A model generated the notes under the pieces. It saw only the letters and a list, made by a program, of their open reading frames with translations. It made no database searches and had not been told where the DNA came from. Both the position numbers and the translations under genes were made by a program. Shown here one piece after another: positions 1,013-45,435 of a stretch of 64,000 nt of DNA. How positions within the stretch are numbered: the first letter of the stretch is position 1; each line of letters begins with the position of its first letter. The DNA comes from a virus. The stretch spans positions 1 through 64,000 of the IMG/VR virus record IMGVR_UViG_3300050122_000130. The stretch is one strand, 5' to 3'.

Positions 1013-1057
1013 ATCCCTTGCTGCGGGTTGCAGCTAACCTCACGGAGACGACGACAA

Positions 1058-6687: not shown

Positions 6688-8787
6688 CTACATCCTCAAT
6701 TTTACGGTCATATTATTGAGATTGAATGCCGTGTAGGTCCCGGCGTTGGCGTATTCAACGGTTTGGACAAAGTGGAATCCTGTCTGCGCAGAGAGACCTC
6801 CAGAATACCATAGCTCTCCGGTCACAGGTGACGATGAAAGCTGATTGAAGAATATGCCTTGGATATTCGCACTGATGCAACTAGTGCCGTCTAAGCAGAC
6901 GCCACCTTCAGTTCCAGACCCAGGAGAAGATGGAGTGTTCACTTCAAGTAAACCACTCACTAGAATCCCGTCTAGCGGCATTCCTGAAACGAAGGAAGTC
7001 CTGTTTCCTATAGAGTTGTTGAGCGGGCGGAATGTGGCTGTTCCATACGTCCATGACGTTGTTGCGTCGCCAGTCGTGCTGACGACATCAACTCTATTGT
7101 AATAATTCCAAACTCCTAGAACCCCAGGCGTACCGCCAACTGTGATTGCTCCGAATTGGAATGCCGTCAAGCCGTTGTTGGTTGCGAATACGGTCCCTAG
7201 ATAGGTCGCCTGATTGGCGGCAACGCTGCCGTAATTGGTAGAGCCGTTGAAGCAATTCGCGATTGAGTTTTTGTTTGTGACATATGACCTAGTCACAAAG
7301 TCGAGCTGGCTGTAGCCGGTGCCGCGCGCGGCGTTGCTGCCGCCTGTATCAGAAGCCCATCCGCCGCCGCCGCCGGTTGCCGACGACATCGCCATACAGA
7401 TGCGGTTAGTTCCAGAATGAACCCACCACACGTCGTAGACCTGAGAACCTACGACCTGCCCGGCGCTCGCCGCGGAGACCATCGCGTCCGTCACCTCGCA
7501 CGAACTAATCGTGTCGATCAGGTCGACGGAGCCATTGTAGTACGGTACCTGGCCGCCGACGTAGCAGTCATAGCGAAGCGTCCCTTGGTTGGCGCACGGA
7601 GAGCCGCTGCATGAGTTTTGCCCCATCACAGGGGTATTGGCTGCGAGAGTGATGCGGCCCTGCGGAGAAGGTACAGCTCCACTTATCGTGATCGTTCCTG
7701 TAGATGTAATCGGGTTGGTGCCGGAGAGAGCTATGCCACTGCCGGCAGCCAGAGTGACGCTGGTCACAGTACCAGTGCCGGTCAGAGTCGCCCACGACGG
7801 AGCGCCGGACGCGTTCTCCTGGAGGACCTGCGTCCCGGAGTTGTTGCCGGCTAGCAGAGCCCACGCCGTCCCTGTCCAGTACACGACGTCGCCTGCGCGC
7901 GTCGGAGTCGGAAGCAACGCAGCGATGGCTAGGGTGGCCGTCGCCTGCCCGGTGCCTCCATTGGCGATCGGAGTTATGCCGGTGACGCCACCATTGCCGC
8001 TCGCCGCCAGATTGACCGACGACATAAACGAACCGGAGATAGTTCCGGAGTTGATGGCCGATCCCGGTATAGATGGAGATCCTCCCAGCGAATAAGTGCC
8101 TGTGACGGTTCCGCTAAGTATTGGAGTGGTTATCGTCGGTGTACTGAGAGCCGCCGTAGTAATCGATGGCGAAATAGAGAGCGCAACATTTCCAGCGCCC
8201 GTGGTGGGAATATTACCCAACACACCAGCATTATTGGTCAGCACGTATCCGGAGGTACCAGACGCAACCGTCGTGGTTCCGATCGAGATCGTTCCGGCCG
8301 AGGCGGTGATCGTACAAGCCCCACCGAGAGTACACGTTTGTCCATTGACGGTCGTCGAGGCATTCGCCAAATCCGCGTTGGTGACGAGCCCGATCGCGGT
8401 GAATGACCCTGTGACAACCAGGTTAGATATGGTCCCTCCGGTGGCCGAGGCGAAAGGCCCCACTGTCCCACCATTGACCTGGGCGAATAGACCTGCCGCT
8501 GTCATCCACATATTGCCGTTAACCGGCGATGTCGGAGCGGTACCAGGCAGAATGCTAAAGCCGGCTACGCCTGCCGTTGAAGATGCTGTGACGAGAGGCC
8601 CCGTCATATTGCCGCCAGTAATCAAAAGCGGCGCGGCACCGAGATAATCCTGCTTGTTGATGAACAGTTGATTCCACTGTGCAGGAGTTAGCACTTGACC
8701 GAATGTCAAGTTGGGCGACGTCTGCGCAAACGCAGCGCCAACGGACAGCCACAGACCAACCGCGAACGCGGCAATCTTTTTCATCAT
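6688..8787 (-). CDS. distal tail fibre / receptor-binding protein with Sec signal peptide
   Basis: MMKKIAAFAVGLWLSVGAAFA-Q; fibre motifs PIANGGTG and GTVTSV; 10 Cys. Confidence 0.8.
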   Translation of the reverse strand: MMKKIAAFAVGLWLSVGAAFAQTSPNLTFGQVLTPAQWNQLFINKQDYLGAAPLLITGGNMTGPLVTASSTAGVAGFSILPGTAPTSPVNGNMWMTAAGLFAQVNGGTVGPFASATGGTISNLVVTGSFTAIGLVTNADLANASTTVNGQTCTLGGACTITASAGTISIGTTTVASGTSGYVLTNNAGVLGNIPTTGAGNVALSISPSITTAALSTPTITTPILSGTVTGTYSLGGSPSIPGSAINSGTISGSFMSSVNLAASGNGGVTGITPIANGGTGQATATLAIAALLPTPTRAGDVVYWTGTAWALLAGNNSGTQVLQENASGAPSWATLTGTGTVTSVTLAAGSGIALSGTNPITSTGTITISGAVPSPQGRITLAANTPVMGQNSCSGSPCANQGTLRYDCYVGGQVPYYNGSVDLIDTISSCEVTDAMVSAASAGQVVGSQVYDVWWVHSGTNRICMAMSSATGGGGGWASDTGGSNAARGTGYSQLDFVTRSYVTNKNSIANCFNGSTNYGSVAANQATYLGTVFATNNGLTAFQFGAITVGGTPGVLGVWNYYNRVDVVSTTGDATTSWTYGTATFRPLNNSIGNRTSFVSGMPLDGILVSGLLEVNTPSSPGSGTEGGVCLDGTSCISANIQGIFFNQLSSSPVTGELWYSGGLSAQTGFHFVQTVEYANAGTYTAFNLNNMTVKLRM

Positions 8788-8800
8788 GATGCTACTCATT

Positions 8801-18518: not shown

Positions 18519-20294
18519 TTAGAGAACGGTGACCGTGCTCAGGCTAAACGACTGCACGCTTTCTCCGTCAACATAGAAGAACGTGATTTGTCGCGGACCG
18601 CGTCCCTGCCGAACAGTGGACGAAGGCGTGGTGAGGTAGAGATACCAGCCTTGATTCTGCAGCGTCGGACCGATGTTGAGGCCGCCCGCGGCCGCATTGG
18701 CTTGCGCGATCTGCGAAGCCGACAATGTCACGCCCGGCACGATCGCACCGAAGGTGATGAACTGCTGAACCGTCGGCGCGATCGCCGCCTCGACGGAGCC
18801 GTCGCCGGACGAGTTGAACGGGATGGAGTTGGACTGCTCGAGCAGTTCCATGAGATCCAACTGAAGCTGAGCGTTCAGCGCGATCTGGTTGATGTAGGTA
18901 TCGATCCACTGGAACGGCCCGGACACAAACCCGCGCTGATAATCGATGAAGCCCTGGTTCGCGGTCGCGATCCCGCCGTAATAGTTGTAGCCGTTGCCGC
19001 GATCGCCGGTGACTTGCGGATTGCCACCCAAATTGATCGCCGCCGTCGATGTGGTAACGCCCGGGACCATTCCGGTCTGTTTCTTGAAGGCCATCGAGAT
19101 CCGTCCGCCGGCCTGGTTGAAGTTGATCGAGGCCACTGCGCCGCAGACGAAGGCGCACAGGTTCTGATCGCCCAGCGGTTCTGACTGGATCGAGGTGCCG
19201 GAATAATTCCCGGCCGCGACGGCAGCCGCATAGCATGCAGCATCCGGGTTTTCAGTGAGAGGCGTCCCGTCGGTGTCGAACGGCACGTACATGAAGCGGT
19301 TGTTCTGGGAATTGTTCCAAGCCGTGAAAGCCAGCTTGTTGGTGAAGCCGGAACCGTTGTCTGGATCGAAGCAATGGGTGAACGTGGCCCAATTGGTCGA
19401 AATCGAGATCAGGTTGTTCATGAAGGTGGACGGCGTGGCCGCTGCCGCGCCCTGGGAGAGATATGCTCCGGTCGCCTGGGTCAGCAACAGATCCGTAGCG
19501 AGAGCCCCTGATGCGAACGCCATCGTCGAGCCGGCACCGGTCGTCCCGGAATTTATAACGAACGCAGACGTCACGCTGTCGAAATAAACGGCAGGTGCGA
19601 AGGAAGAGATCGTCTCCGGGGTCGCTTCCGTCATGGACTGGTTAAGATTGTAGGTTCCGGCGCCGCCGGTGCCGGTTCCGAAGGAGGCGATAAAAGTTCC
19701 CGCGGTGATGTTCGTACCGGTGATTTTCTGCCCAACGGCAATCGGATTGCCGGTGACGGAACCAGAGACCGTCAAAACGGCAGCCGCCACAGTTCCGGTG
19801 AAGGTCGCCTCCGCGACACCGGAAATGGCCAGATCGGTTTCGATGAGTTGCGCCGCATTGGTGAACGACGTGGCGCCGCTCAGATCGATGCTGGCAGTGG
19901 TCGGAGTGCCGTTGATCGTAACCGTCAGCGAGGCATTGAAAGCCTGGAGCTGGGTCAGTGTGATCGCGGATGCGTTGCCGCCCCACAGATAGGCGGACAC
20001 AGCATTTGGATTGTACTGAGCGACCAAGAGGGCACCGGGCTTGATGGTCGACGTGTCGAAACCACCAAAATAGCCGGATCCAAGATTAGTCCCGCCGCCG
20101 GCGAATTTGTACTCGGCAGAAACTCCGCCAAAGAACGACTGCACCGCGATCGGACCGCCGAACGACATCACGCTGCCAATCGGCACGCGCGTGCTCTTCG
20201 TCAACAGCATGCCGTTCAGCACCAGGCCGCTGCCGCCGGCCGCGAGAACTCCCGGATTGTTGGCAACGAAAAGCGAGGCGTTAATTGTGGTCAT
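18519..20294 (-). CDS. tail sheath protein (DUF3383-like)
   Basis: PGVLAAGG, NWATF, GYNYYG, WIDTYINQI motifs. Confidence 0.9.
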   Translation of the reverse strand: MTTINASLFVANNPGVLAAGGSGLVLNGMLLTKSTRVPIGSVMSFGGPIAVQSFFGGVSAEYKFAGGGTNLGSGYFGGFDTSTIKPGALLVAQYNPNAVSAYLWGGNASAITLTQLQAFNASLTVTINGTPTTASIDLSGATSFTNAAQLIETDLAISGVAEATFTGTVAAAVLTVSGSVTGNPIAVGQKITGTNITAGTFIASFGTGTGGAGTYNLNQSMTEATPETISSFAPAVYFDSVTSAFVINSGTTGAGSTMAFASGALATDLLLTQATGAYLSQGAAAATPSTFMNNLISISTNWATFTHCFDPDNGSGFTNKLAFTAWNNSQNNRFMYVPFDTDGTPLTENPDAACYAAAVAAGNYSGTSIQSEPLGDQNLCAFVCGAVASINFNQAGGRISMAFKKQTGMVPGVTTSTAAINLGGNPQVTGDRGNGYNYYGGIATANQGFIDYQRGFVSGPFQWIDTYINQIALNAQLQLDLMELLEQSNSIPFNSSGDGSVEAAIAPTVQQFITFGAIVPGVTLSASQIAQANAAAGGLNIGPTLQNQGWYLYLTTPSSTVRQGRGPRQITFFYVDGESVQSFSLSTVTVL

Positions 20295-20312: not shown

Positions 20313-21026
20313 TCAATCGGGAAAGACCACGTCGACATCGACGAGGCTGAGAGCGACCGCATCATAGAATTCCTGCGGTGTGGAAATAGAAGGCGTGATT
20401 TGAAGATGGACATCGACGGTCCATCGCTCTTCGTATTGAACAGCGGCCGTATGGAACGGCGACTGGATAGGATCATCCGAAAATAGCGGGGTCACGCCGG
20501 TGCCGGCCATCTGATCGACAGCAAAAGAACTCCGGATCACATTCGATATTACTTGAGCATTGTCGCCGCTATTCGGACCGTGGACATCGAGCTGCGCAAC
20601 GAACTCGGTCGAGGTTGCTATCGAGAGCGTGCCGGCGGACATTATCCTCGACCCGACAGTTTGCGTACCGGAAACGATATAGGTTCCGACGCCCCCAACT
20701 GTTCCGCTCGATTGCGATTGAACGATGGTACTGTTCGCGACACCGACACCAAAGACCTGGTTGCCTTCTTCAATCTCGCCGGAAGAAATTTCCGTTACGA
20801 TCATCTGATTGGCCGTAATCGAAGCCGTGAACTTGGTGTCGACCGGAGTCTCCAGGTTCGTCCCCAGCCGAGGGCGCCGAAGAGGCCACATCGATATGTA
20901 ATCTCCGCTCGGAGACGCCACTCTGTTGGTTTGACCCACGATGACGGATACGCCGGTCGGCAAGATAGCAGTCAATAGGTTGCCGAGCGCGGTGAAGACC
21001 GCACTCTCTACTATCGATGGGGTCAT
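20313..21026 (-). CDS. tail terminator / neck protein
   Basis: GQTNRV..P; QLDVHGP; PLF.DDP.Q; QYEERW. Confidence 0.8.
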   Translation of the reverse strand: MTPSIVESAVFTALGNLLTAILPTGVSVIVGQTNRVASPSGDYISMWPLRRPRLGTNLETPVDTKFTASITANQMIVTEISSGEIEEGNQVFGVGVANSTIVQSQSSGTVGGVGTYIVSGTQTVGSRIMSAGTLSIATSTEFVAQLDVHGPNSGDNAQVISNVIRSSFAVDQMAGTGVTPLFSDDPIQSPFHTAAVQYEERWTVDVHLQITPSISTPQEFYDAVALSLVDVDVVFPD

Positions 21027-21029: not shown

Positions 21030-21446
21030 TTAGTTTGTGCTGACGCCGAAATTGATCACAACGCCAGAGCCGGCATTGGATGAATCGTTGTCGGCGATGC
21101 CGCCGACTAAACAAAAGCCAAGGCCGAGACCGAACAAATAACCTAGCGTTGATGGGATCACCGCACCTCCGCCTGAGCTCGATGTCCCGTAAGGCACCGG
21201 AATACTCAAAACAGGTACATCGGTGCCGGCAATCGGTGCCGTGGCCTTGTTGAATAGCTTCAAATAATAGATCACCGCCGTGGTGTTGATCGGCACTATA
21301 TCATGGAGGACTACCTTGCCAGCCTGCACCAGTGTGCAGTTCGTCGATACCGTGCTGAGATAATGCAGCGGAGCGCTCTGCGCGTGGGCGCGAATTGTGC
21401 CTAGCGATAGAAAAACCAAGCACACCAGGATATTGATCGCCTTCAT
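21030..21446 (-). CDS. exported small beta-sandwich protein
   Basis: Signal ..IRAHA-QS; YLKLFNKATAP.AGT..P resembles the C-terminal domain of 26816..28648. Confidence 0.75.
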   Translation of the reverse strand: MKAINILVCLVFLSLGTIRAHAQSAPLHYLSTVSTNCTLVQAGKVVLHDIVPINTTAVIYYLKLFNKATAPIAGTDVPVLSIPVPYGTSSSGGGAVIPSTLGYLFGLGLGFCLVGGIADNDSSNAGSGVVINFGVSTN

Positions 21447-21469
21447 AGTTTTTCCTTCTCTAGAGATAG

Positions 21470-21877
21470 TCACCAGTTTGTATATCCGGACGGCACGGTG
21501 AAGGCATAGGGCGTGGCACCAAAGTCCGTAGTGTTGGCGTCACCTCCAGACGAATTGAGAGAGACTATCGCGATGAACTGCAGCGCGGAGATCGTGCCTT
21601 CATACTGGATCGGTGCGTCAGTCACCGCGACCGGCTGGCCGACCGTCGCTGTCGGAGCTACGCCATCATCGCGATATCTAACTGCCTGGGTCTCGGCCTT
21701 GATAATCGCCAGCGATGGGACGCCATTGCAGGCAGCCGGGATCGTCAGCGACTGGACGGTCGTCACCGTGACCTGCAGGTAGCCGCACGGCACGCGACGG
21801 ATGCCGCTGTCGGCCATCGCGGAGCAGGGCAGCAGCCAAGCAGCCGCCAGCACCGCTAGAAGGGCGGTTCGGAGCAT
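21470..21877 (-). CDS. exported small phage protein, possibly chimeric
   Basis: GAAGGA RBS; signal ..SAMA-DS; VRYRDDGVAPTATVG. Confidence 0.7.
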   Translation of the reverse strand: MLRTALLAVLAAAWLLPCSAMADSGIRRVPCGYLQVTVTTVQSLTIPAACNGVPSLAIIKAETQAVRYRDDGVAPTATVGQPVAVTDAPIQYEGTISALQFIAIVSLNSSGGDANTTDFGATPYAFTVPSGYTNW

Positions 21878-22096
21878 GAGATTTCCTTCGGGATTTGTGG
21901 TAGATTTTACTCGTGGTCGCTGCTTAGCTCGAAGCGTGCCGCGGTCAAACACTGTTGGCCAAGGACTCCCATAGCCCCTCCCCGCCTGTAGATTTCAGGT
22001 TGTCAAGACGGGATATTTCGCTTCGAGCGACTGGCGCGTGCAGCGCAACCTGCGGTAACGGTTCCATCGGGGGATTGCCTCCCGGGGGAATTAAAG

Positions 22097-22261
22097 TTGA
22101 GTGCCAAACGTTCGGCTCGCCTACTTAAACCGGTCGAAAAGCCGCAGCCGGTTGATAGCCAGAAAGCTAAGGTGATCACACCGGCAAAAGACGAAAGCGT
22201 TGATGAGTTTGCCAGAAAGTCGTGCTTCGATGACGATGGGCAGTTTACTCTTGGGTCATAA
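22097..22261 (+). CDS. 54-aa antisense ORF (not in the ORF track)
   Basis: GGGGGA RBS, TTG start, open to TAA; fills the only large gap in the cassette. Confidence 0.4.
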   Translation: MSAKRSARLLKPVEKPQPVDSQKAKVITPAKDESVDEFARKSCFDDDGQFTLGS

Positions 22262-22264
22262 GGT

Positions 22265-24655
22265 TCACGGCAAATGACTTACCAAGATCGAGGTCTGTGG
22301 ATTGTCCGTGAACGGACCGCTCGGATAGCCGCTCGGTACAGCACTCAGGATGTAACTCGTCGGTGAATAGAATGCGGAATCGCCACCCACCCAGTAAGAC
22401 CAGCCCATATAAGGACCGGACGCCGAGACTTCGTTGGCCGAGAAATAATTGAACAGGTTGGTGGCGTCAGGCGGGCAACTGGAATCCTGCGACCATCCGG
22501 TTTCCCCGATGAATATCTTGACGCTGTTGGTGACGGCCCATGACGTTGCGGCTGTCATCGGCGCAGAGCCGTTGCCAGCACAAGCCGCATGTGTCCCCGA
22601 GAAATCGCTGTCGAGATATTCGTGCATCTCGTAGGCGACCTGCAAGCCTGCAGGTGGCGTATATCCGGCCCATGCCGTGCTGTTGCCGCAGGATACCCAA
22701 GAGTGCCCGCCGGTGTAGCAGGTGCCCTCAATCATCACGAGCTGTGCCGTCGTGACGCTCGCAATCGCGGTATTGACAGCGGTCTGTGCGGTAAACCATT
22801 GCGCCGCCGTCTGCACATTTGGTTCGTTCATCACGTCAAAAATGACGTTCGGATAGTTCTTGAACTTGGTAGCCATCCGGGTCCAGAAATCGACGAGTTG
22901 GGCAGTCGCTTCCGAACTGATGCCGGGATAGATGATCGAGTAATTCAGCAGCGTGTCGTTGACCTGTCCGAACAGATGATCATCAATCATGACGTACATA
23001 TTTTGCGAAAAGGCATAATCAATCACCGCCTTCATCGCGGTAAGATTGGTCTGCGTCCCTGAAGTCGCGAACGCCGATTGCGCGGGCTCGTCGCACCGTC
23101 CGACCAATCCGTCTGGGCTGGCGAGCCGGGGGCAGTTCGTGCTGTTGCGGACGAATGAAACCGGGTCCAAAGGGCCGTAGACATCGGGTTGCAACCGAAG
23201 CTGATGGATGGGCATCCGGATCAGGCCCATGCCTTTACCGCCCCAATAGGCCGTGTTCGTGTTTTCCGGGTAGATATAATTATATTGAGATGACGAGGGG
23301 TATGTGAACTCCGCACCCGAGATATTGACTCCCTTGTAATTGATCGGTGTGAAGGTCCCGCTCGGCGCGGCGAACGCCGTCTCTGCGGGGGCAACCGCTT
23401 TGACGGTGATAACGGTATTGGCATCGGTGGATAAGGCAGTCGAAGAACTTGTGACCAATAGCGTAATCGTTTCGGTTTGCGTGGCCGTAGCGCTTCCGGG
23501 GTTATAGACGATCGATTGCAGTTCCGAAGTAATAGTAGCTGGCGTGGCCGAGGCCAGAGTATAGGGACCGCTCCCGCTCAATCCGGTTCCGGTAAGCGTT
23601 CCCCCGGCAGACCCGGAGAGTGTCAATGTAGCGCTGTCTGTGTTCCCGACATCGGCGACAGTCACATTAACTGACTGGAACGTGGATGGCGCACCGCCGC
23701 CATGGATGAATGGCATATTGGACTTGCCGACTACCGTCACAGTCGGGCCTGCCCCGGCAATCTGTGGCGGCAGGGCGGATAGCGGATCTGGCAACGTTGT
23801 GGAGTAATAGGTATTGTCCGTAGTGTTGAAATTTCCGATCACGGTCGGCGTCAGTTCGTCATAGGTGACGATGATCTCCTGCCACGACCCGATATAGTCC
23901 TGACCACCGAATCTGAAATGATTGACATCAAACTCTGTACCGCCTCCAGCGGGAGCGAACGTGAACGCCGCGACGCTAGAGCTAGCGACCAGAGAACCAT
24001 TCTGGAAACCGTTGACGTTATTGGTCGAATAAAGATCGCTGAATGAGCCCGCCAGATTAGCCCAGCCCGTATTTGAACCGAGACTGACGGATGTCCCGCC
24101 GCTATTCGGTGCCACCAGGTAAGCATTCGATAGCATCCGGAACTGGAGGCTGAAGATGTCCTGGGACAGCAACACTCCAGAAGTTGCGTTCATTCTTGCG
24201 ATCACCGTTTGCAGTCCCTGCCCGGAACTCGGCGAATTGCTGATCATGTATTCGCCAGCCGCCACGGTCACTTCTGGATACCCGAGTGAATTGACCAGCG
24301 TCAGGATCGGCGCGGCGCCCATGCTGGAGGTGTCGAGATGATTTGCGGACGGGCTTTGGTCGTAGATGATTGCAATCGCAATCGATCGCGAGGTGGCCCA
24401 GTCCTGAATGGCTTGCCGTGGCAGGTTTCCAGCCGCATTGAAGTTAAAATCCATCTGCGCACTGTCTGACGCGCGCTGCAAACGAATGGCCGGGCCGCTA
24501 TAGGTCGGGTAAATCTTGCGAAGCGCGTAGATGTTGGAAACGTGGGTCGCGGTTGCGAAATTCCCCAATGAGACGGACGAGCCATGTAGGCCGATCCCGG
24601 CGGCCGACACCCACGCAATGAGGATGAGCAAGCAGGCGCTAACTGCTTTGCGCAT
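22265..24655 (-). CDS. exported GH5 endoglucanase with N-terminal LamG/arabinofuranosidase-B-like and Ig-like domains
   Basis: GVNISGAEF, MNEP (acid/base), HEYLD, GETGW (nucleophile); YALRK..Y.G..IR..R N-domain; signal peptide. Confidence 0.9.
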   Translation of the reverse strand: MRKAVSACLLILIAWVSAAGIGLHGSSVSLGNFATATHVSNIYALRKIYPTYSGPAIRLQRASDSAQMDFNFNAAGNLPRQAIQDWATSRSIAIAIIYDQSPSANHLDTSSMGAAPILTLVNSLGYPEVTVAAGEYMISNSPSSGQGLQTVIARMNATSGVLLSQDIFSLQFRMLSNAYLVAPNSGGTSVSLGSNTGWANLAGSFSDLYSTNNVNGFQNGSLVASSSVAAFTFAPAGGGTEFDVNHFRFGGQDYIGSWQEIIVTYDELTPTVIGNFNTTDNTYYSTTLPDPLSALPPQIAGAGPTVTVVGKSNMPFIHGGGAPSTFQSVNVTVADVGNTDSATLTLSGSAGGTLTGTGLSGSGPYTLASATPATITSELQSIVYNPGSATATQTETITLLVTSSSTALSTDANTVITVKAVAPAETAFAAPSGTFTPINYKGVNISGAEFTYPSSSQYNYIYPENTNTAYWGGKGMGLIRMPIHQLRLQPDVYGPLDPVSFVRNSTNCPRLASPDGLVGRCDEPAQSAFATSGTQTNLTAMKAVIDYAFSQNMYVMIDDHLFGQVNDTLLNYSIIYPGISSEATAQLVDFWTRMATKFKNYPNVIFDVMNEPNVQTAAQWFTAQTAVNTAIASVTTAQLVMIEGTCYTGGHSWVSCGNSTAWAGYTPPAGLQVAYEMHEYLDSDFSGTHAACAGNGSAPMTAATSWAVTNSVKIFIGETGWSQDSSCPPDATNLFNYFSANEVSASGPYMGWSYWVGGDSAFYSPTSYILSAVPSGYPSGPFTDNPQTSILVSHLP

Positions 24656-25857
24656 CACTGAATCCACGCCGGGTTGACGTTGCCGGAATTATACACCGCT
24701 GGGTAGCCCGTGCTACCAGTCGGATGAACGTCGCTCCATGGTGAGTTGGAGGCTGTACCGTTCACGATCCAGATGCCATCGCCTTGAACGAATTCAAGCG
24801 CGCCAGCAACTTCGAAGTAGTGTGGTGTCAACCCACGGACCCAAGTGTTGTAAATCTGCTTCTGGGCGTTGCAGCCGCATGGAGTCTGGCCGGCGGTGGT
24901 TGAATAGTTATCGGAACTGGAGCCGCCGGACGGCCCAATCGTGATCGAAATCAGCGGACCATAAGAAGCCAGCGCCGAAGTCATCGATGCGACGTAGCCT
25001 TCGACCGTGGCCGCGCTTTCACCAAAGTTGAAATCGTTGACGCCATACTCGTTGATGAAACTAGAAAAATATTGCGCGAGTTGGATGCGCTTGGCGTGGC
25101 CAGAAACCCAACTTCCAATGCTGTCACCGGGGATACCATAATTGGCAGTCGGAACCGTGGATATGATTGATGGGACAATTACGCCTCCGTTCGGCGTATC
25201 GCCCGTACTCGTGCCGCTCTCGCCTATGCCATAGGCTATGCTGTCGCCCCAGACAGCAACGGCAGGATGGGTATGGTCCCCCGCAATAACGACCGCCCCG
25301 AACTGAAATCCATTTGACGTGTTGCTGGGAAAGCCGCCTCCCATCGTGTAATTGGGAACTGTCGTGCCAAATTGTGTCACGCCCTGGTATAGACTGGTGC
25401 CAGTCTCATACTGGTTCATCCCAGGAATCACGTTTGCCGAGTTCGAACACCACACATAAATCTCGACCTCGGAATTTGCAGCAACCGAAACGGAGATGAC
25501 ATCAGAAGTTAAAAAGTCACCTGTCGTGGACCCAGACGCATTCCCCCCGAACGTGAACTGGTTGAATGGCCCGGTGACCGCAGGATATCTGGCGGATGCT
25601 GAGCAGGTGAGAGTGCCACCAGTGTTTGTTTCGCCGACAACATTTGGCAGCACGATCTGCAAATGGTTGACAGCGTAAATATTTTGCGTGGCCTGATAGG
25701 ATAAAACCTCTGCCGCACTGACCGACGTAACGGGATAATTTGTGGCCGATACCGTCTGCCGAAGTCCTGATGGAGCGTTGGCGCTCCCGTGTATCCAATT
25801 CGCGCTAACCAGCGAAACAATGGCGAGAATTGCGAACCTGATAACGGCGCCTAGCAT
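24655..25857 (-). CDS. exported SGNH/GDSL esterase
   Basis: GDSI, GVND and DVHP blocks; hydrophobic N-terminus. Confidence 0.85.
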   Translation of the reverse strand: MLGAVIRFAILAIVSLVSANWIHGSANAPSGLRQTVSATNYPVTSVSAAEVLSYQATQNIYAVNHLQIVLPNVVGETNTGGTLTCSASARYPAVTGPFNQFTFGGNASGSTTGDFLTSDVISVSVAANSEVEIYVWCSNSANVIPGMNQYETGTSLYQGVTQFGTTVPNYTMGGGFPSNTSNGFQFGAVVIAGDHTHPAVAVWGDSIAYGIGESGTSTGDTPNGGVIVPSIISTVPTANYGIPGDSIGSWVSGHAKRIQLAQYFSSFINEYGVNDFNFGESAATVEGYVASMTSALASYGPLISITIGPSGGSSSDNYSTTAGQTPCGCNAQKQIYNTWVRGLTPHYFEVAGALEFVQGDGIWIVNGTASNSPWSDVHPTGSTGYPAVYNSGNVNPAWIQ

Positions 25858-26816
25858 GAGTTTGCCAATCCCCAATAGAGATACTGGTTATGACAGAGCG
25901 CGGTCCGGTTGGTTGGCGAAAAAGCTATTGGCCACTCACCGCCTTCTTCAAAACTACCTGTTTGAAAAACAGCATCGTCGGTCGAGGCGAATAAAGTCGT
26001 TTGACTCTGCGGGGTACAGAAATTGGCGGTAGCCGTATTGTCGGTCCCGTTGATATTCAAAACGATACCGGCGCTTGAAAATCCCGTCTGATAGGCATTT
26101 GCCACACCGAGAGCAATGGCGCCGCTGGCAAAAGATCCTGTTCCGCAACCAGAGCCTATAAAAGCCGAGGGTGAGCCATTGCCCGTTTGCAAACCTAAAC
26201 CGGCGCCATTGCTCAGGACTCTCCCATATATGATACCGAAATTTGATTGGGGTGAGTTGCTTTGCGCGACGACGGACCATGATATCGGCAGCGTCGTATT
26301 GGAATCGCTAGCAGTGAGGAATGGACTGTTTCCGGCTACGCCCTGAACACAAGGAAAAGTCCCAACGCAATTAAACACCAGCGTCGGCATATTAGCCAGC
26401 GTGGCTTGAAGCAGATGAATGCCGTTGCCGGTCTGATCATAGAGCTTGGCCACACTGCATCCAGCGTGTGTGACCGTGCAGAACGTGGTGACACTAACGG
26501 TTGGCGATCCGGTTGGGCAAACTACCGCACTGAGATTAGCTGCGCCGCTGGTCCCAATGGGGATGGTGCATGTTGCAGTGCCGGTTGATGTATCAACGAT
26601 ATCCGCAGCGGGATTGGTGCCCGGTACGGCATAGGCTGCGTTATAGGCCCTAAGGCCGTACCAATTCGAGGCGCTGGCGATAACGTCGCCGGGTCCGGTG
26701 TAGCCGCTTGCTGCGGGAGTTTTGGAACTCCCGGCCCCCGTCAGCGTCATCTGAGCCGATGACGGCCCAGCGACCGCCAGCAGGCATGCCAGCGCTATCG
26801 CGAAAAGGCCGCGCAT
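25851..26816 (-). CDS. exported LamG/arabinofuranosidase-B-like lectin-fold protein
   Basis: Signal ..PSSA-Q; WYGLRAY, V.KLYDQTGNG; 10 Cys. Confidence 0.75.
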   Translation of the reverse strand: MRGLFAIALACLLAVAGPSSAQMTLTGAGSSKTPAASGYTGPGDVIASASNWYGLRAYNAAYAVPGTNPAADIVDTSTGTATCTIPIGTSGAANLSAVVCPTGSPTVSVTTFCTVTHAGCSVAKLYDQTGNGIHLLQATLANMPTLVFNCVGTFPCVQGVAGNSPFLTASDSNTTLPISWSVVAQSNSPQSNFGIIYGRVLSNGAGLGLQTGNGSPSAFIGSGCGTGSFASGAIALGVANAYQTGFSSAGIVLNINGTDNTATANFCTPQSQTTLFASTDDAVFQTGSFEEGGEWPIAFSPTNRTALCHNQYLYWGLANSC

Positions 26817-28648
26817 CAGAGGAAGTCCACCGTGCAGTCAAGTGCTGTGGTTGGCCCCGTACCGCCTGTAGAGGTGCTTGCAGCGCCAGCGCTGATGGCG
26901 GTCGAATATTGGTCGCCAACCAGAGAGAACGTAAACCCGGTATTGGACCCTGGAGGAATGCCGACGAACTTAGTTGGCGCCGTCGTCCCCATGGTGACCG
27001 ACGCTGCCGCCACGTTGAAGATCTGGATATAGGCCCAATGCGTGGCGTCGGAATTACTGCACTGTGCCGAGTAGACCTGTCCGGCTGACGCCTTGACCGC
27101 GATAGCTGTATTTGACAGGGCGGCGAGGGTTTTGGTGGATAGGCCGCCGGAGGCGCTTCCGAGAGTGACCGGGTTATTGACGGCCGCCCTGATGCAACCG
27201 AGCACTGTCGCGGTCCCGGACGCCGGGCAAGCCGTGTCCGAGGTCTGCCCCTCAGTCACATCCGCTCCTGATGCAGCACTGATGGGCTGCGTCGCTTGCC
27301 AGAATGTGCCGGAAACAGGTTGCGTAGCCTGCCAGAACGTCCCGGTAACCGACCAAGTGGCTGCCGTAGTCGGCGCCACAAACAGACCATTCGTGGCGGA
27401 CAACACTGTCCCGCCCTGCGTCGGCACGACGCCGTTGCCGTTGCCGAGCGATGGACTTGTGTTGAGAGAGACGCCGACTCCGCCGCCGGAGATCGAGACG
27501 GAGCCGCTAATAGGGACAGCCGTCCCACCGGAGACTCCCTGGATAGCAAGCACCGCTGTGCCAGGCGCTCCGGCCGTGCCTCCTCCCGCGACAATCCACG
27601 GCGACGTGGATTGCGTCACAGCGACGGTGCTCAGCGGAGTCAACGTCGAGATTTGCGCAGCGGTCAAGACCACCGGCATCGACGCAGCAGCCAGGGCTTG
27701 CCCTTGCGCCGGAATGCGTCCGGTATTCGTCGCGACGGTGCCGAGATTTCCTCCGGTTTCGAGAGCGTAGTTCGTGAGCGCGGCGGGAGGCGTCAGGGTC
27801 GACAACTGCGAGGCCGTTAGCACCACGGGGACGGAGGCGGCCGCTAGAGCCTGACCAAGCGCCGGCGTCTTGGTGTCGATCGACGCTACTGACGCATTAC
27901 CGATGCCTTGCAAAGCCGACGTCGCCGCGCCATTAAGCGTGCCGATATTGAAGGTGGGTGTTGCAGCAAAAGCCGGGAGCGTCCCGGTGATGCCGACAGA
28001 CGTCGGTGGCGTCAGCGCTGTGACCTGCGCAGCCGGCAATACGACAGGAATGCTGGCGCTCGATAGCGCTTGGCCCAACACCAGAGCAACCATGTTGGTG
28101 CCGTTGGAGACGCCTAGCGCGGTACCGGCCGCAGGGAATGCCGAGCCGAAGTTGCTCGAGGTACCACCGCCGCCACCTCCTCCGCTGCAACCGCTATCGC
28201 AGATGAAATGGGCGGGGCTGGTGAATTGGGGAAGCGTTCCGGATATGCCGAACGCCGTGTTGCCGATCGAGCCGCCGGCTTGGAACGGCGATCCCAACGC
28301 TGTAATCGTAGAGCTCTGCAGCGTCGCCGTCGCGGCGCCGTTCAAGGTGCCGAGGTTTACCGTCGGTGTGCCGTTGATGGTTGCCAGAATGGGAACGCCA
28401 CCGGTGACGCCTTGGACATACAGAGCCGTGCCGTTTGGGTTATTCGATCCGATACCACCCGAAAGAGGATTGCCAAAAGCGTCGCTCGAGATAGACGACG
28501 GCGTGGTGATGCCGGCGTTGGTGTACGTCTTCATCGACAGGATTTGCTGCGGCGACGACTGATCCTTCAGGATATAGAAGCCGGCCGTTTGCGCATGCGC
28601 GTGCAACACCGACGCCAGAAGCGCCAGCGCAGCAAGTTTAATTCTCAT
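26816..28648 (-). CDS. exported repetitive fibre-like protein
   Basis: Signal ..HAHA-Q; three GQAL..AS.PVVL repeats; two GTFWQATQP repeats; C-terminal VKASAGQVY domain. Confidence 0.8.
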   Translation of the reverse strand: MRIKLAALALLASVLHAHAQTAGFYILKDQSSPQQILSMKTYTNAGITTPSSISSDAFGNPLSGGIGSNNPNGTALYVQGVTGGVPILATINGTPTVNLGTLNGAATATLQSSTITALGSPFQAGGSIGNTAFGISGTLPQFTSPAHFICDSGCSGGGGGGGTSSNFGSAFPAAGTALGVSNGTNMVALVLGQALSSASIPVVLPAAQVTALTPPTSVGITGTLPAFAATPTFNIGTLNGAATSALQGIGNASVASIDTKTPALGQALAAASVPVVLTASQLSTLTPPAALTNYALETGGNLGTVATNTGRIPAQGQALAAASMPVVLTAAQISTLTPLSTVAVTQSTSPWIVAGGGTAGAPGTAVLAIQGVSGGTAVPISGSVSISGGGVGVSLNTSPSLGNGNGVVPTQGGTVLSATNGLFVAPTTAATWSVTGTFWQATQPVSGTFWQATQPISAASGADVTEGQTSDTACPASGTATVLGCIRAAVNNPVTLGSASGGLSTKTLAALSNTAIAVKASAGQVYSAQCSNSDATHWAYIQIFNVAAASVTMGTTAPTKFVGIPPGSNTGFTFSLVGDQYSTAISAGAASTSTGGTGPTTALDCTVDFL

Positions 28649-28652
28649 TGTG

Positions 28653-29138
28653 CTAGACCCCTGTGAGGATAGCCGGAACGATCACTTCGTTACCCGGATC
28701 GGAGAGATCCGTGGTCAGACCGCCGCTCGGCGGCGTCGGGAAGAGAACATCGTCCTGAAGCACGATCGCAACCATGCACCAGGTCAGGCCCCATTGCTCG
28801 AGCGAGGCCAGGATCTTCCATGTCGTGCCTTCCGGCACGGTCCCCGCGGGAAACACCAGCAGATCCCCGCCGAATTGCAGAACGCGATTGATGGCAAGCG
28901 CCGTGCCGTTGAGAAAGACCTTTTTCTCCGCGCCCTGGATGTTCAACGAATCCAGAAGTCGAACATCTTTCGAACTAAGCGGCTGGACCTGTGCCAACAC
29001 CGTGGCTTGATTGTAGCCGGGCTGCTGAACGAAATTGGCGCCGATCGTGTTTCCCGTGCTGACAAACAGCGTGGCCGGAATATTTGGATTGATAACGCGC
29101 GTGACTGAATTGGCTGTCGCGCGCAGATTTCCTACCAT
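28653..29138 (-). CDS. head-closure / head-tail joining protein
   Basis: NL..INPN..STG..AQVQPLS..LNIQG..GGDL..W..LEQW..W. Confidence 0.8.
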   Translation of the reverse strand: MVGNLRATANSVTRVINPNIPATLFVSTGNTIGANFVQQPGYNQATVLAQVQPLSSKDVRLLDSLNIQGAEKKVFLNGTALAINRVLQFGGDLLVFPAGTVPEGTTWKILASLEQWGLTWCMVAIVLQDDVLFPTPPSGGLTTDLSDPGNEVIVPAILTGV

Positions 29139-29530
29139 CGAATTCTCCGCGCTGACCGGCGTTGCTCGCGCAGGCTCTTTACGCTCACACGAGCAATCAG
29201 CGGCTTAATGCCGATGTTGGCGTCGTACTCGGAGCGATCCTTCAAGATGAACTTGCGAGCCTCTTCGAGAACGCCATCAGCAATCGACCGATCAAATTGC
29301 GGTTCGGCAAAATTGATGCAGTAAAGGTGACGTTTATTCTGAGGAATCCGCTTCAGAGCCTCAGCCTCAAATTCTCTGAGTTGCTGAAGGATCGGCACCG
29401 CTGAGAACCGTATCGGAGAATCATAGATGGCGCAGCGCGTCAAAGGACCAAGCTGCTCGAGCGCAGCCATCTCGTCATCGACTGAACCGACATAAAGCTC
29501 CGTGATGTGACCGCCATCGTTCGTAGACAT
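29132..29530 (-). CDS. hypothetical protein
   Basis: GGAGG RBS; coupled to the downstream gene. Confidence 0.6.
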   Translation of the reverse strand: MSTNDGGHITELYVGSVDDEMAALEQLGPLTRCAIYDSPIRFSAVPILQQLREFEAEALKRIPQNKRHLYCINFAEPQFDRSIADGVLEEARKFILKDRSEYDANIGIKPLIARVSVKSLREQRRSARRIRW

Positions 29531-29585
29531 CTTCGCCTCCGGAAAGATATGCGTATTTCACGCATACCTCCCGAAGGTCAAGCTT

Positions 29586-30263
29586 TTAGCCAAGACGATA
29601 GAGCGTCCAGGCACCCGCACCAGTCTTGCGTGCGCGAAAGCGAACAGAAGAATCGGCGCCTGGAGTGTTGGTCGATAGAACGGTCATGCCGCCGACCAAA
29701 GTCCACCCGGTATTTGTCGTCATCACCGCAGTTTCAGCGGCGACACCCGACGTGTTGATGACCGAGAAATCGAACGAGCTGCCCGCGACAGAATTCGGAA
29801 AAGCTGTATCCATCGCGGTCGCAAGTGGAAGAGTGAGCGCCGAGCTACCGGCAGCGCCGTTTGCTACCGTGATGATGCCAGTCTGCATGTTGGCCGCGGT
29901 CAGCGTCGCCGACACGGTTTGCGCGTTCGGAGCGCCCTGCACGAGCGGTGTCGGGTTGGTGTTGACGATGTTGCTGAACGTACCCGGCGCCGGCACGTTC
30001 GCGCCGATCGTCATATTGTCGATGAAGCCCGGCGTGCTGCTGGCCCGGTTCGGCGGACAGAACGGAAAGCTGATGTTGCCGTTTTTGTCCGTCAAGAAGA
30101 TCGTGTTGCATTGAGCGGCGCTCGCCGGCGAGACAAACATCAGCAGCAACAGCAGAAGCGTCACGAACAACAGCATCAGCAGTTCGAGCCGCCAGAAGGT
30201 ACGCGCCGTGATCGGACGACCGAACGGATGACTATCGAAGTCAGCGAAAGCAATCTTGAACAT
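29586..30263 (-). CDS. head-fibre-like protein with N-terminal signal/TM segment
   Basis: LLMLLFVTLLLLLLMFVSPASA-AQC; C-terminal TLP.A..FDFSVIN..GWTLVG..FRARKT..LYR domain. Confidence 0.7.
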   Translation of the reverse strand: MFKIAFADFDSHPFGRPITARTFWRLELLMLLFVTLLLLLLMFVSPASAAQCNTIFLTDKNGNISFPFCPPNRASSTPGFIDNMTIGANVPAPGTFSNIVNTNPTPLVQGAPNAQTVSATLTAANMQTGIITVANGAAGSSALTLPLATAMDTAFPNSVAGSSFDFSVINTSGVAAETAVMTTNTGWTLVGGMTVLSTNTPGADSSVRFRARKTGAGAWTLYRLG

Positions 30264-30287: not shown

Positions 30288-30827
30288 TTACATTTTGACT
30301 TCGTAGCCAACCGAGTTCAGCAGGTTGCCGTGCTCGATAAGCGGTTTTGTCGATGCGCCGTAATTCGTCAGTCCCGCGGCGACGCGCGCGCGCGCCTGTT
30401 CAACCACAGTTCGGTTGACGACCAGGCTCTGATCCTGAGATTTCATGCCGCGCAACATCACCGTGACCGGGCTGAGCGGCGGAGTGTACGTGTTGATGAT
30501 CGAGTCCTGGAGCTGGCCTTGGATCACCATTCCGGTGCGCGCAAGCGTCAGCGGAATGTTGTAGTCGGTGGCCTTGAGCTGAAACGCGATCCCGGCCGGC
30601 CAGCCAGGCGACTTGTCCGAAATCATGTTCCGGAAGAACGGCCGCGGCGGGATATGCGCCTTCGGAGCGCCAAACTCCTGGATTGCCGCAATCATAGGGA
30701 TCGAGGTGCCGTCCGGTTCCGTCGATCCTTCGAGGAACCCAATGCGCACGGTGCCCGGCTGGGACAGTTTCGCGGCCATTTTGGTCAGAATGGCGCGGAA
30801 CTTGATCCCGCCGGACATCGTAGGCAT
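30288..30827 (-). CDS. neck / tail completion protein
   Basis: RIGFLEG..AAIQEFGAP..IPPRPFFR..KPLI..G.L. Confidence 0.85.
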   Translation of the reverse strand: MPTMSGGIKFRAILTKMAAKLSQPGTVRIGFLEGSTEPDGTSIPMIAAIQEFGAPKAHIPPRPFFRNMISDKSPGWPAGIAFQLKATDYNIPLTLARTGMVIQGQLQDSIINTYTPPLSPVTVMLRGMKSQDQSLVVNRTVVEQARARVAAGLTNYGASTKPLIEHGNLLNSVGYEVKM

Positions 30828-31588: not shown

Positions 31589-32173
31589 TCAGTAACTCCT
31601 GCCGCGAAGAGCGGCGTTGGCTCTACGCGTCGCGGTGCGCTGAGCGATTTCCTCGGCGGTCTTTTTCGTACCAAGCTTCATCGCCGCCAGTTTCTCAATG
31701 AGATGACGCGACGTCGGTTCCTTTTCTCGCGCAATGCGCCGAAGGTGTTCGATGTGGGACGCCTCTGGCTTCCATCCCTTCTTTTTTGAAGAGATTAACG
31801 CGCGCGACTCGATTGTGTGGCTGCGCCCCTTAAACGTGCCTTCTCTTTTTACCGCTCTCTTGATGCCGAGCACTGAGTCCACGCACTCAAGGCAAAGATT
31901 GTAGAGCTCATCGCGATCATAGCTATCAACGATACGCTGTTCGTACAGCGTTAGATTTTCGACGGAGCAGATCAGCAAAACTTCAAACCTGAACGCGGGC
32001 TCGCCATATTTATTGAAGGCGCGCTGCAGGTTCTGGTTTTTGTGCGTTCCTCTCCTCAAACACCCAAGGTGAGAAGACTTTCGATTTCCGATTTTGGCCG
32101 CCTGCCCGATATAGAACTTTGCAGGATCTTCGCCGCGATCAATGACGATTCGATAGATGCCGGTTTTCTTCAT
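31589..32173 (-). CDS. GIY-YIG homing endonuclease with NUMOD3-like repeats
   Basis: GIY..FYIG..R..H..N..LQRAFNKYG..E..YN; KGRSHT.ES. Confidence 0.9.
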   Translation of the reverse strand: MKKTGIYRIVIDRGEDPAKFYIGQAAKIGNRKSSHLGCLRRGTHKNQNLQRAFNKYGEPAFRFEVLLICSVENLTLYEQRIVDSYDRDELYNLCLECVDSVLGIKRAVKREGTFKGRSHTIESRALISSKKKGWKPEASHIEHLRRIAREKEPTSRHLIEKLAAMKLGTKKTAEEIAQRTATRRANAALRGRSY

Positions 32174-33441: not shown

Positions 33442-34545
33442 TTAGATGCCGATCATGCTCGCAATGGCGAACGGCTGACGCAAAACAGCGCCCATCGAGC
33501 CGCCACTCAGCTTCTGCTTCCACGATGACAGATCGGGGATCAGACGATGAGCACGCATTTTCTCGTTGAACGCGCAGAAGCCGGTCTGCTGACCGCGAAC
33601 GCTGGTGCAGATCAGCTGCATGAAGTTGCCACCGACAACGCCCTGCGGATTGCTCGAGGACTGAGCCTGGTACTGGATCGCGTCGATGATCTTCAGGTTC
33701 GGAATCTGCTTCAACAGATCCGAAACGTTGACATCGAACGAGTTCGTCGCGGTGAGCGCGAACTTGGACGCCGGAGAAAGCGCCAGCACGAATGGCGATT
33801 CCTGGTTGATGTTGCCGCCGGACTGCAGGATGAGTTGGATGACCAGCGCCTGGATGTCCAGATAGATCTCGTTCGGCGTCGCGGTGATGATGCCGTTGGT
33901 GATCCACTGGTTGTTGCCGTATGCCTTCGGTCCGGGCGTCAGCGCGGCCGTGAGGTTCGGATCGTTCAGCAGCCCGTAATTCTGCAGGCCCTTCACGCCG
34001 AAGAAGTATGTCTGGTTCTGGTAACGGTTCAGAGCCCAGGCGGCCGCGGCGTTCAGTTCGCTGACCCAGTTGATCTTCGCGAGACCAACGACATCGAGCT
34101 CGCGATCGCCGTATTGCAGGATCGTCTGATAGAGGTACGGCTGGCGCGAGGGGAAGTTCAGGTTGGTGCTGACCGAGCCGTTGTTGACGTAATCGTCGTA
34201 GCTCGAGACTTCACCGGTGTGCTCGGCAGTCGGGAACATGACCGAGTTGAGCGTCCAATCGCCCTTCTTTACTTCGCCGAGAATATCGGCGGCGCGCAGC
34301 GGGGAGAACAGGATCTCGTAGACTGTCGGGTCGATCATGGTCGACAGCCACACCGGAATGCCGGTGTTCAACGTGGTCGTGGTCGTCGGCTGCGCGTCCA
34401 TCGCGAGGCCTTGATCCATGGCGAGCTCGAAGTTGTGCTTCCAGCCGTCAGGGATGTACATGCGCGCGTTTTCAAAGATCGCGCCGCTCGACTCGTAGGT
34501 TTTGCGCTCCTGAGCGAACGCGGCGACAGCTTCGTGGCGATTCAT
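33442..34545 (-). CDS. major capsid protein (DUF2184-like)
   Basis: AMDAQP..N.GIP..IDP; EVKKGDW; YFFGV.GLQNYGLLNDP; EKMRAH. Confidence 0.92.
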   Translation of the reverse strand: MNRHEAVAAFAQERKTYESSGAIFENARMYIPDGWKHNFELAMDQGLAMDAQPTTTTTLNTGIPVWLSTMIDPTVYEILFSPLRAADILGEVKKGDWTLNSVMFPTAEHTGEVSSYDDYVNNGSVSTNLNFPSRQPYLYQTILQYGDRELDVVGLAKINWVSELNAAAAWALNRYQNQTYFFGVKGLQNYGLLNDPNLTAALTPGPKAYGNNQWITNGIITATPNEIYLDIQALVIQLILQSGGNINQESPFVLALSPASKFALTATNSFDVNVSDLLKQIPNLKIIDAIQYQAQSSSNPQGVVGGNFMQLICTSVRGQQTGFCAFNEKMRAHRLIPDLSSWKQKLSGGSMGAVLRQPFAIASMIGI

Positions 34546-45146: not shown

Positions 45147-45435
45147 CGAGCGCGCGCCTCCCGATCGGCGGGTCACCCATCAATTGCGACGTGACATTCT
45201 CGTGCTCGAGATAACCGTCTCTGCTAGGATCGTATTGCGCGGCAGCGCGGTAATCCGGCTTGTCGACAGCGTACTCTTTCAGCCGATTGTCGACTGAACC
45301 TGCCATGCGCTTGCGGTAACCGCGCATATATTCCTTCATGTATCGATTGTACGATTCTCGATCGGCCCATTTCGACGGCGTGGCACCTTTCGGTCTACCG
45401 CGTGGACGTCCAGTTGGATTGCTCCAATAGCTCAT
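45133..45435 (-). CDS. AT-hook-containing small DNA-binding protein
   Basis: TGRPRGRPK; YN.YMKEYMR.YRKR. Confidence 0.6.
   Translation of the reverse strand: MSYWSNPTGRPRGRPKGATPSKWADRESYNRYMKEYMRGYRKRMAGSVDNRLKEYAVDKPDYRAAAQYDPSRDGYLEHENVTSQLMGDPPIGRRALDART

Follow-up and report, generated by a model that had tools for sequence, protein, structure and literature searches.

Leader-bearing, even-cysteine fibre and glycan-active proteins encoded among the neck genes of an uncultured tailed phage

The assembly of tailed phages is, by textbook account, wholly cytoplasmic. Sec or lipoprotein leaders are found on some phage proteins encoded beside structural or receptor-binding genes, as in Lom and Bor of lambda, Llp of T5 and RI of T4. 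In the Gram-positive element PBSX, the lysis cassette encodes XepA, a single protein outside any fibre. The present analysis concerns a cassette of seven genes located at positions 21,030 to 30,263 of a 64,000-nucleotide stretch of viral DNA (the window), which constitutes the first 64 kb of the 95,488-bp IMG/VR virus record IMGVR_UViG_3300050122_000130, a record estimated to be 90% complete. The cassette encodes a set of virion-surface-type proteins apparently built for the periplasm, unlike those of textbook cytoplasmic assembly. Among the closest described cases, RI of T4 has a documented leader (PMC8385771), and gp091-gp094 of Cellulophaga phage phi10:1 are listed as structural proteins by tandem mass spectrometry (MS/MS) of particles in GenBank record KC821618. 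Full-text searches of the literature turned up no account of tailed-phage fibres exported through Sec.

Six consecutive minus-strand genes of the cassette lie between the gene of p161 (28653-29138), a conserved neck/head protein, and that of the tail terminator (20313-21026), and a seventh, p225, stands just upstream, after Neck1. In the following lines, a slash marks the predicted cleavage site and cysteines are those of the mature region.

26816..28648, minus strand: p610, leader cleaved at about AHA/QT, mosaic fibre shaft rich in Gly, Ser, Thr and Ala, C-terminal jelly-roll knob; 6 Cys
25851..26816, minus strand: p321, leader and LamG/ArabFuran-catal-like beta-sandwich; 10 Cys
24655..25857, minus strand: p406, leader, N-terminal beta-rich domain and SGNH/GDSL-type esterase domain; 4 Cys
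22265..24655, minus strand: p800, leader, ArabFuran-catal/LamG-like domain, repeat linker and GH5 endo-beta-1,4-glucanase domain; 6 Cys
21878..22264, no strand: gap of 387 nt inside the cassette, no confident gene or RNA
21470..21877, minus strand: p160, leader (AMA/DS), small beta protein with RYRDDGVAPT core motif; 2 Cys
21030..21446, minus strand: p147, leader (AHA/QS), stand-alone divergent copy of the p610 knob; 2 Cys
29586..30263, minus strand: p225, 28-aa N-region, hydrophobic segment, ASA/AQ site, linker of about 55 aa with 2 Cys, spike/fibre knob (residues ~107-224)

The 387-nt gap, in a cassette otherwise tightly packed, holds only one 58-aa open reading frame (ORF) on the minus strand and one basic 54-aa ORF on the plus strand (22097-22261), and an Rfam search of it gave no match.

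In each of the seven N-termini, an n-region with charged residues is followed by a hydrophobic core free of charges and by a small-x-small site. Leaders were predicted over all ORFs of the genome by a von Heijne-type heuristic (n-region charge, uncharged h-region of 8-18 residues, -3/-1 rule), not by SignalP. The gene set was the union of length-greedy ORFs with those of a GC3-based caller, which on its own mis-called several real genes. Besides two Tat-like leaders and a small transmembrane ORF, the top scores went to ten Sec-type leaders, and these ten, the best Sec-type scores of the genome, are those of the seven cassette genes, a tail fibre and two left-end genes. The analysis confirms the gene order, coordinates and signal-like N-termini noted in a first-pass annotation of the window, apart from four start codons that had to be corrected: p147, p160, p406 and p800 truly start at internal ATGs at 21446, 21877, 25857 and 24655, respectively. 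The hand counts of cysteines in that annotation were returned unchanged by a script, for the cassette as well as for the tail fibre (10) and the left-end proteins (4 and 2). Even cysteine numbers are found in 9/9 exported proteins of at least 100 aa (p = 0.002), against 32 even and 39 odd among the other Cys-containing ORFs.

Because all seven carry secretion signals and paired cysteines, the cassette proteins are very probably exported and disulfide-folded in the periplasm rather than in the cytoplasm, where the particle is built. Export and oxidative folding, as proposed in the first-pass annotation, are strongly supported, since five syntenic relatives and hundreds of family members likewise combine leaders with even numbers of cysteines, while leaderless members of these families are poor in cysteines and random in parity. 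That the hydrophobic N-termini are uncleaved anchors or chance sequences, with assembly on the cytoplasmic side, is hardly credible. The leader calls are heuristic and made from sequence alone, and the hydrophobic stretch of p225, preceded by a long N-region of 28 residues, may be a signal anchor, but canonical n-h-c regions and A-x-A-type sites are present in 7/7, and even parity together with the family-wide coupling of leaders and cysteines is unexpected for cytoplasmic proteins.

This coupling is seen in four families, namely the fibre with its knob, the LamG-like proteins, p160 and the spike knob, each of which appears to exist in a leader-bearing form containing cysteines in even number and in a leaderless, Cys-poor form. 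In p610-like ORFs, the number of Cys per 100 aa is 0.88 with a leader (18 even counts, 1 odd) and 0.17 without one (14 even and 14 odd among the Cys-containing ones); leaderless relatives of p610 are fibres of 1650-2400 aa. Among the top 150 members of the knob family, even counts outnumber odd ones by 64 to 8 when a leader is present and by 31 to 29, among Cys-containing members, when it is not. In the p321 family, a leader is found in 96/120 homologues, of which 85/96 have even cysteines, while leaderless members have mostly 0-3 Cys. The leader-bearing forms of p160 possess two conserved Cys that are missing from the leaderless forms of about 101 aa, which have 0-2 Cys (mostly 0-1). Leaderless p160-like genes sit in head modules, between portal and scaffold, and leaderless p225-like genes, of about 135 aa, directly follow the capsid gene, as in the locus L153; p160-like and p225-like genes co-occur in 35/80 loci. 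The leaderless members of the families thus look like ordinary virion parts.

The cassette products divide into proteins with putative virion-surface-type modules (p610, p147, p160 and p225) and proteins with putative glycan-active modules (p321, p406 and p800). The Gly/Ser/Thr/Ala-rich, fibre-like composition reported in the first-pass annotation holds, as these four residues make up 0.38-0.53 of the cassette proteins versus a genome median of 0.30; charged residues account for 4-10% versus 24%. The fibre p610 shares shaft repeat modules and tip modules with known phage fibres. Behind its leader stands a short module common to phages with unrelated structural genes, and no known anchor domain was recognised there. 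Its knob, formed by the last 125 residues (~485-610), is an eight-strand jelly roll in the AlphaFold2 (AF2) model, with a pLDDT >90. An exhaustive search finds the knob in 3102 cluster representatives, which range from 137 to 2368 aa and in every case have it at the C-terminal end. The identities suggested by fold matches (XepA, KHP40 cement protein, Ena pili, CBM36, TNF/C1q) were left unassigned, the fold being a generic jelly roll with a best Z of 7.5. In cultured phages, tblastn of p610 gives a single match of 67 aa, in Aphanizomenon phage CL131, and megablast of the cassette gives none.

The relationship of p147 to this knob is indicated by its match (E 4.8e-7) to a knob hidden Markov model (HMM) built without p147, and p147 is 58% identical to a leader-bearing protein of the relative L005. 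In many stand-alone exported knob proteins, a Cys lies only a few residues from the predicted cleavage site, and the weak fold matches of the p610 knob include Ena-type disulfide-linked pilus subunits, which raises the idea that stand-alone knobs might polymerise through disulfides. The p160 family, recognised by the RYRDDGVAPT core, is present on at least 584 viral contigs, and tblastn of a p160 relative against cultured phages gives one weak match. The C-terminal end of p160 itself (21470-21560, minus strand) departs from the highly conserved family ending (...FIAQTSGGVVDVLLYK). In place of the latter it has a 32-aa tail reaching into the p147 start, and no alternative frame gives back the consensus; this aberrant end may be a recombination scar.

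The C-domain of p225 is modelled with an AF2 pLDDT of 91. Its best solved match is the knob of the capsid spike gp52 of Pseudomonas phage Pa223 (Foldseek E 3.5e-4; Z 9.3, rmsd 3.4 over 101 residues). The C-terminal end of a tailspike (Z 8.5) and further fibre domains match too, whereas unrelated chains stay at Z <4. The p225 knob is 69% identical to a leaderless 278-aa protein of the relative L036. The N-terminal capsid-attachment arm and triple beta-helix of gp52 are lacking in p225, in which residues 1-49 comprise the N-region and hydrophobic leader, before the linker of about 55 aa. Pairwise hhalign comparisons show no relation between the knob, p160 and p225 families, and blastp comparisons among cassette members were discarded since composition bias dominated the scores.

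The two enzymes appear to keep their catalytic motifs. The GH5 domain of p800 matches PF00150 (E 9.3e-36, 124.1 bits vs a cut-off of 23.5), and its closest solved structures in a PDB sequence search are endo-beta-1,4-glucanases such as 4w7u (E 8e-40). Its translation includes MNEPN (NEP) and GETG, the predicted GH5 acid/base and nucleophile motifs. The N-domain of p800 matches PF09206 (E 1.2e-9, 38.2 bits vs a cut-off of 25), the match spanning just 72 residues. In p406, the blocks GDS (GDSI), GVND and DVH can be read, the spacing of DVH being shorter than in the DxxH consensus of block V; in a homologue of p321, P0123, a LamG-like domain is fused to a GDSL_2 domain. The parts listed in the first-pass annotation (fibre, lectin, esterase and glucanase) are supported with two reservations. 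Indeed, the LamG-like label of p321 rests on Atlas neighbours only (TM 0.72-0.75), with no Pfam match, and the PF13472 score of p406 (27.3 bits, E 5.9e-6) lies below the curated cut-off of 32.9. PDB sequence searches of p610, p321 and p406 returned nothing useful.

The p321 family is virus-only and consists of LamG-like sandwiches of about 300 aa; its 243 homologues all come from metagenomic contigs, none of them longer than 114 kb. Four of the ten cysteines of p321 (C83, C100, C113 and C120) are conserved in the family, and one Atlas cluster consists of a tail-completion domain fused to a p321-type domain. No match to p321 was obtained by tblastn against cultured phages. A scan of 185,579 bacterial species genomes, for which a narrower family alignment was used, gave two weak partial matches, both in proteobacterial metagenome-assembled genomes and with no cassette there, which gave no hint of the host.

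Uncultured relatives were sought among loci that p610 had retrieved, by comparing every protein of the phage with them in tblastn. In the cultured Burkholderia phage PE067, the homologues of p161 and of the terminator are adjacent and followed by the sheath, with no cassette. Because the flanking genes stand side by side in this phage, the cassette is, by gene order, an insertion, yet a conserved one. Leader-bearing genes are found at the cassette site in all five syntenic uncultured relatives (L010, L052, L036, L005 and L072), whose capsid identity is 44-55%; in L072 they come after the sheath. The p161 homologue precedes the cassette in L010, L036 and L005, and one homing-endonuclease-like gene lies between them in L052. 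A p610-like fibre, of 513 to 1397 aa, is included in every one of the five cassettes, and the rest of the cargo varies: a GH5 protein 52% identical to p800 in L010, a p321-like protein and a 953-aa protein in L036, and p147-like or p160-like small proteins elsewhere. The leader proteins of the relatives contain 4, 2, 12, 10, 8, 0, 12, 2, 10, 6 and 2 Cys, the lone odd count, 9, being that of a 3'-truncated ORF.

Signal-bearing genes in structural regions, for which the first-pass annotation had suggested a survey of phage genomes, are found at or near the same place in these five relatives; they also occur in unrelated backgrounds. In the latter (L001, L018, L019 and L004), a trio is formed by a leader-bearing fibre, a p321-like protein (about 257 aa) that has a leader too, and a large protein with a Sec-type or Tat-type leader, near capsid genes or, in L001, near the endolysin. 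The third cassette genes of L018 (10392-13022) and L019 (13756-14556) have Tat-like leaders (SRRSFLLG and SRRRLIQ) instead of Sec leaders.

The variable cargo bears on a metabolic explanation, in which the GH5 and esterase would be auxiliary metabolic genes (AMGs) degrading plant polymers to feed the infected cell and the other genes would be unrelated passengers. It is common for GH5 genes of soil viruses to be listed as AMGs, one of them shown active according to work cited in bioRxiv 10.1101/2024.12.20.629349, and about 5% of prophage CAZymes have leaders (PMC13507307). This explanation is nevertheless very improbable for the cassette, where the enzyme genes invariably occur together with fibre, knob and LamG-like genes, where between relatives the enzyme cargo changes and the fibre stays, and where both enzyme genes form part of the late operon in a phage that shows no trace of lysogeny. 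Late expression would leave little time for nutrient gain.

The minus strand of the window is organised as a typical contractile-tail late operon, which also includes tube, chaperone and tape measure genes. The genes that locate the cassette in it, and the leader-bearing genes outside it, are the following.

33442-34545, minus strand: major capsid protein (phrog_264)
30288..30827, minus strand: Neck1/tail-completion protein (phrog_222, E 7.8e-36), leaderless, 0 Cys; upstream border of the neck block
29132..29530, minus strand: p132, leaderless protein in the neck block
28653..29138, minus strand: p161, conserved neck/head protein (phrog_1912, E 3.5e-32), leaderless; directly upstream of the cassette
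20313..21026, minus strand: tail (neck) terminator (PF23961, E 5.7e-20; phrog_1876); downstream border of the cassette
18519-20294, minus strand: sheath, in the late operon
6688..8799, minus strand (ORF 6688-8922, true start at codon 42): distal tail-fibre-like protein with leader (AFA/QT), 10 Cys; outside the cassette
117-416, minus strand: left-end leader-bearing protein, 4 Cys
1028-1591, plus strand: left-end leader-bearing protein, 2 Cys, helical and Lys/Glu-rich, which could be spanin-like or a periplasmic coiled coil

Searches with Pfam and PHROG profiles gave no match for p132, and no family match was obtained for the two left-end proteins. Compared with the capsids of cultured Pseudomonas, Burkholderia, Aeromonas and Klebsiella phages, the capsid protein shows 42-49% identity. 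The leader-bearing tail fibre follows a tail-fibre adaptor gene (9430-10509).

Placement of the cassette in the late structural operon, as put forward in the first-pass annotation, is supported. Translational coupling of the four large genes stands as well, with stop and start codons overlapping as TGATG at p610/p321 and p406/p800 and as ATGCTAG at p321/p406. On the strength of these overlaps, of promoter- and terminator-like sites no commoner in the cassette than in shuffled sequences, and of a position kept at 44-55% capsid identity, the genes appear to belong to the operon, and the cassette is proposed to be an optional late-gene insert in the neck-gene block. The same data make it improbable that the genes are moron-type cargo expressed apart from the late operon, for instance in lysogeny, and serving host-surface remodelling, superinfection exclusion or host fitness in the manner of lambda lom and bor. 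Such a role would suit the absence of the insertion from cultured PE067, the presence in the same phage of a Lom-like protein resembling an outer-membrane barrel, and the 387-nt gap within the cassette. Against it stand the stop/start overlaps, promoter- and terminator-like sites at chance level, the tight packing of the cassette against neck genes, the position kept across deep divergence and the near absence of the p321 family from bacterial genomes; moreover, no integrase was found in the 95-kb genome (90% complete by estimate).

The phage is proposed to be lytic and contractile-tailed, to come from soil and to infect a diderm host. The host is taken to be diderm because the phage also encodes the leader-bearing, barrel-like protein, which has an aromatic last residue. 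This protein (3713-4462, minus strand) has, from an internal start, about 249 aa, a leader (ARA/AD), no Cys-rich features and the C-terminal end ...GYAF. It resembles Lom/OmpX-like outer-membrane beta-barrels, without a Pfam match, and its gene is near the lysis genes. Elsewhere in the genome, two proteins have twin-arginine-type leaders, NRRAFLTG at 44325-45176 (minus strand) and NRRFFVAG at genome position 79755-80300 (plus strand), which suggests Tat export of folded or cofactor-bearing proteins. At 484 aa, the tape-measure protein (15993-17447, minus strand) is short, and in its C-terminal part it is similar to lytic tail proteins (phrog_2013). Amid the head genes lies a homing-endonuclease-like gene (31589-32173, minus strand) whose product begins with a GIY...YIG-type N-terminus, and relatives of this gene adjoin the cassette in L052 and L030. 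Four tRNAs, clustered at 1910-2288 on the minus strand (Val-CAC, Met-CAT, Gln-TTG and Thr-TGT), are the sole matches of an Rfam search of the genome. A search of the genome for a phage-encoded DsbA found none.

Direct readings of the sequence are the leader-like N-termini, the even numbers of cysteines, the domain content, the site of insertion, the conservation and the two family forms. Translocation, leader cleavage, disulfide formation, docking, substrate and timing may be inferred along the following lines. The seven products would be made as Sec pre-proteins while the virion genes are translated. After passage through the inner membrane they would fold in the periplasm, their cysteines being paired there by Dsb enzymes of the host. 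Contact with the cytoplasmic particles would be made only once the holin opens the inner membrane, with release at burst; that periplasm and cytoplasm mix by way of holin lesions ahead of outer-membrane rupture would follow from established lysis biology. In the confined phase between holin triggering and this rupture, the fibre, knob and spike members would dock on finished particles as add-on appendages. The two enzymes would act on an acetylated beta-1,4-glucan-type polysaccharide of the host surface or matrix, either free or tethered to the fibre via the LamG-like domains.

Docking of the fibre, knob and spike parts, with enzymes free or tethered, is given a little less than an even chance. 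It is favoured because of the virion-type ancestry of the four families, the absence from this phage of leaderless paralogues of the fibre, spike and p160 families, the leader on its sole long tail fibre, the conserved operon position and the MS hint from phi10:1. Attachment at lysis as a single modular appendage, the central step of the first-pass annotation, is favoured indirectly, by the virion-like look of the leaderless relatives and by the phi10:1 proteins. Several points weigh against this reading. Cysteine density in this genome is alike in exported and other proteins. In p225 and the leader-bearing fibres, the leader occupies the place of the N-terminal region of leaderless relatives, and in Pa223 gp52 it is this region (residues 2-41) that holds the spike on the capsid (bioRxiv 10.1101/2025.06.11.659172). 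The post-leader module of p610-like proteins, common to unrelated phages, suits a portable partner more than one particular site on the virion. GH5 or SGNH combined with a leader and a CBM-like domain resembles the layout of ordinary secreted bacterial enzymes. Soluble stand-alone knobs, of which p147 and hundreds more are predicted, are hard to place on a particle. Finally, MS detection in phi10:1, whose proteins are not homologous to the cassette, could reflect co-purified envelope debris.

Most of these points suit an exported kit that never joins the particle. All seven proteins would then be stored in the periplasm and released at lysis as soluble disulfide-stabilised depolymerases, namely the esterase and the glucanase, and glycan-binding proteins, namely the fibre, the knobs and the LamG-like protein, functionally akin to T5 Llp or to free phage depolymerases such as PghP. 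Proposed roles are to loosen the host matrix for dispersal, to strip polysaccharide from neighbouring cells, or to mask or destroy those receptors on debris that would otherwise trap progeny. A free kit is a genuine possibility, though clearly short of an even one, and the periplasmic stock of matrix-degrading enzymes, which the first-pass annotation had named as its alternative, is nearly as likely as docking, above all for the two enzymes. The leaders and paired cysteines, the secreted-enzyme layout, the p225 leader in place of the capsid-anchoring region of the Pa223 spike and the many stand-alone exported knobs all agree with it, as do the movement of the fibre/LamG-like/large-protein trio between unrelated phages, beside the endolysin in L001, and the particle made by PE067 without any cassette. 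It accounts less well for the leaderless members of the fibre, spike and p160 families, which resemble true virion parts, for a phage that has no leaderless paralogues and whose only long tail fibre is exported too, and for the leader-bearing proteins MS-detected in phi10:1 particle preparations.

Should the proteins dock on particles, tailed phages might possess a second, extracytoplasmic assembly line, in which fibres, knobs, capsid spikes and depolymerases are Sec-exported, disulfide-hardened and snapped on at holin opening. Such an assembly line, which thousands of uncultured phage protein families would use, including about half of the sampled knob family, is a tentative proposal that is somewhat more open to doubt than docking in this phage. 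Docking would amount to an undescribed assembly step, dependent on host Sec, Dsb and lysis timing, and would bear on host-range prediction, phage engineering and the heterologous production of receptor-binding proteins. If the proteins stay free, soil phages would release disulfide-stabilised glycan-binding and glycan-cutting kits with each burst, which would change the reading of "viral CAZyme AMGs". In either case, leader status offers a cheap new annotation feature for phage structural regions.

Among described systems, phi10:1 (KC821618) also has a run of late, tail-distal genes with classic Sec leaders, gp091-gp094, along with gp095, a pectate lyase that cuts polysaccharide. However, these proteins have no sequence homology to the cassette and belong to a phage of the Assiduviridae with a Bacteroidota host; their genes come after the tail genes instead of standing in the neck block, they have few Cys (0-2), and the record is silent on leaders. 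In Pa223 gp52 (PDB 9NY6; bioRxiv 10.1101/2025.06.11.659172), the C-terminal knob of the trimeric capsid spike has the fold of the p225 C-domain. Nevertheless, gp52 is cytoplasmic and held on the capsid by residues 2-41, whereas in p225, which is encoded amid neck genes, a leader or anchor and a linker with Cys stand in that place. PBSX XepA (PDB 6I56) is likewise an exported beta-sandwich from the late region of a tailed-phage-like element. It is among the best fold matches of the p610 knob, with an rmsd of 3.0 over 90 residues, but its Z of 7.5 is typical of jelly rolls in general, and sequence similarity is absent.

Leaderless tail fibres and tailspikes, such as CBA120 TSP4 and the tailspike of Acinetobacter phage Solidus, have shaft repeat modules, knob or spike domains and a glycan-binding or glycan-cutting task in common with the cassette proteins. 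They fold in the cytoplasm, possess N-terminal particle-binding domains and are Cys-poor, whereas the cassette proteins have leaders and paired cysteines. Each of Lom, Bor, Llp and RI is one small protein of the envelope that serves regulation or exclusion, in contrast to the coupled multi-gene fibre and enzyme set of the neck block. GH5 genes on uncultured soil viruses have been described as AMGs and, like leader-bearing prophage CAZymes, are discussed only as metabolic genes (bioRxiv 10.1101/2024.12.20.629349; PMC13507307). The GH5 of p800 differs from them in being leader-bearing, fused to a LamG-like domain and encoded inside a conserved exported fibre cassette of the structural operon, and because of this leader, fusion and setting it probably serves the infection cycle rather than metabolism.

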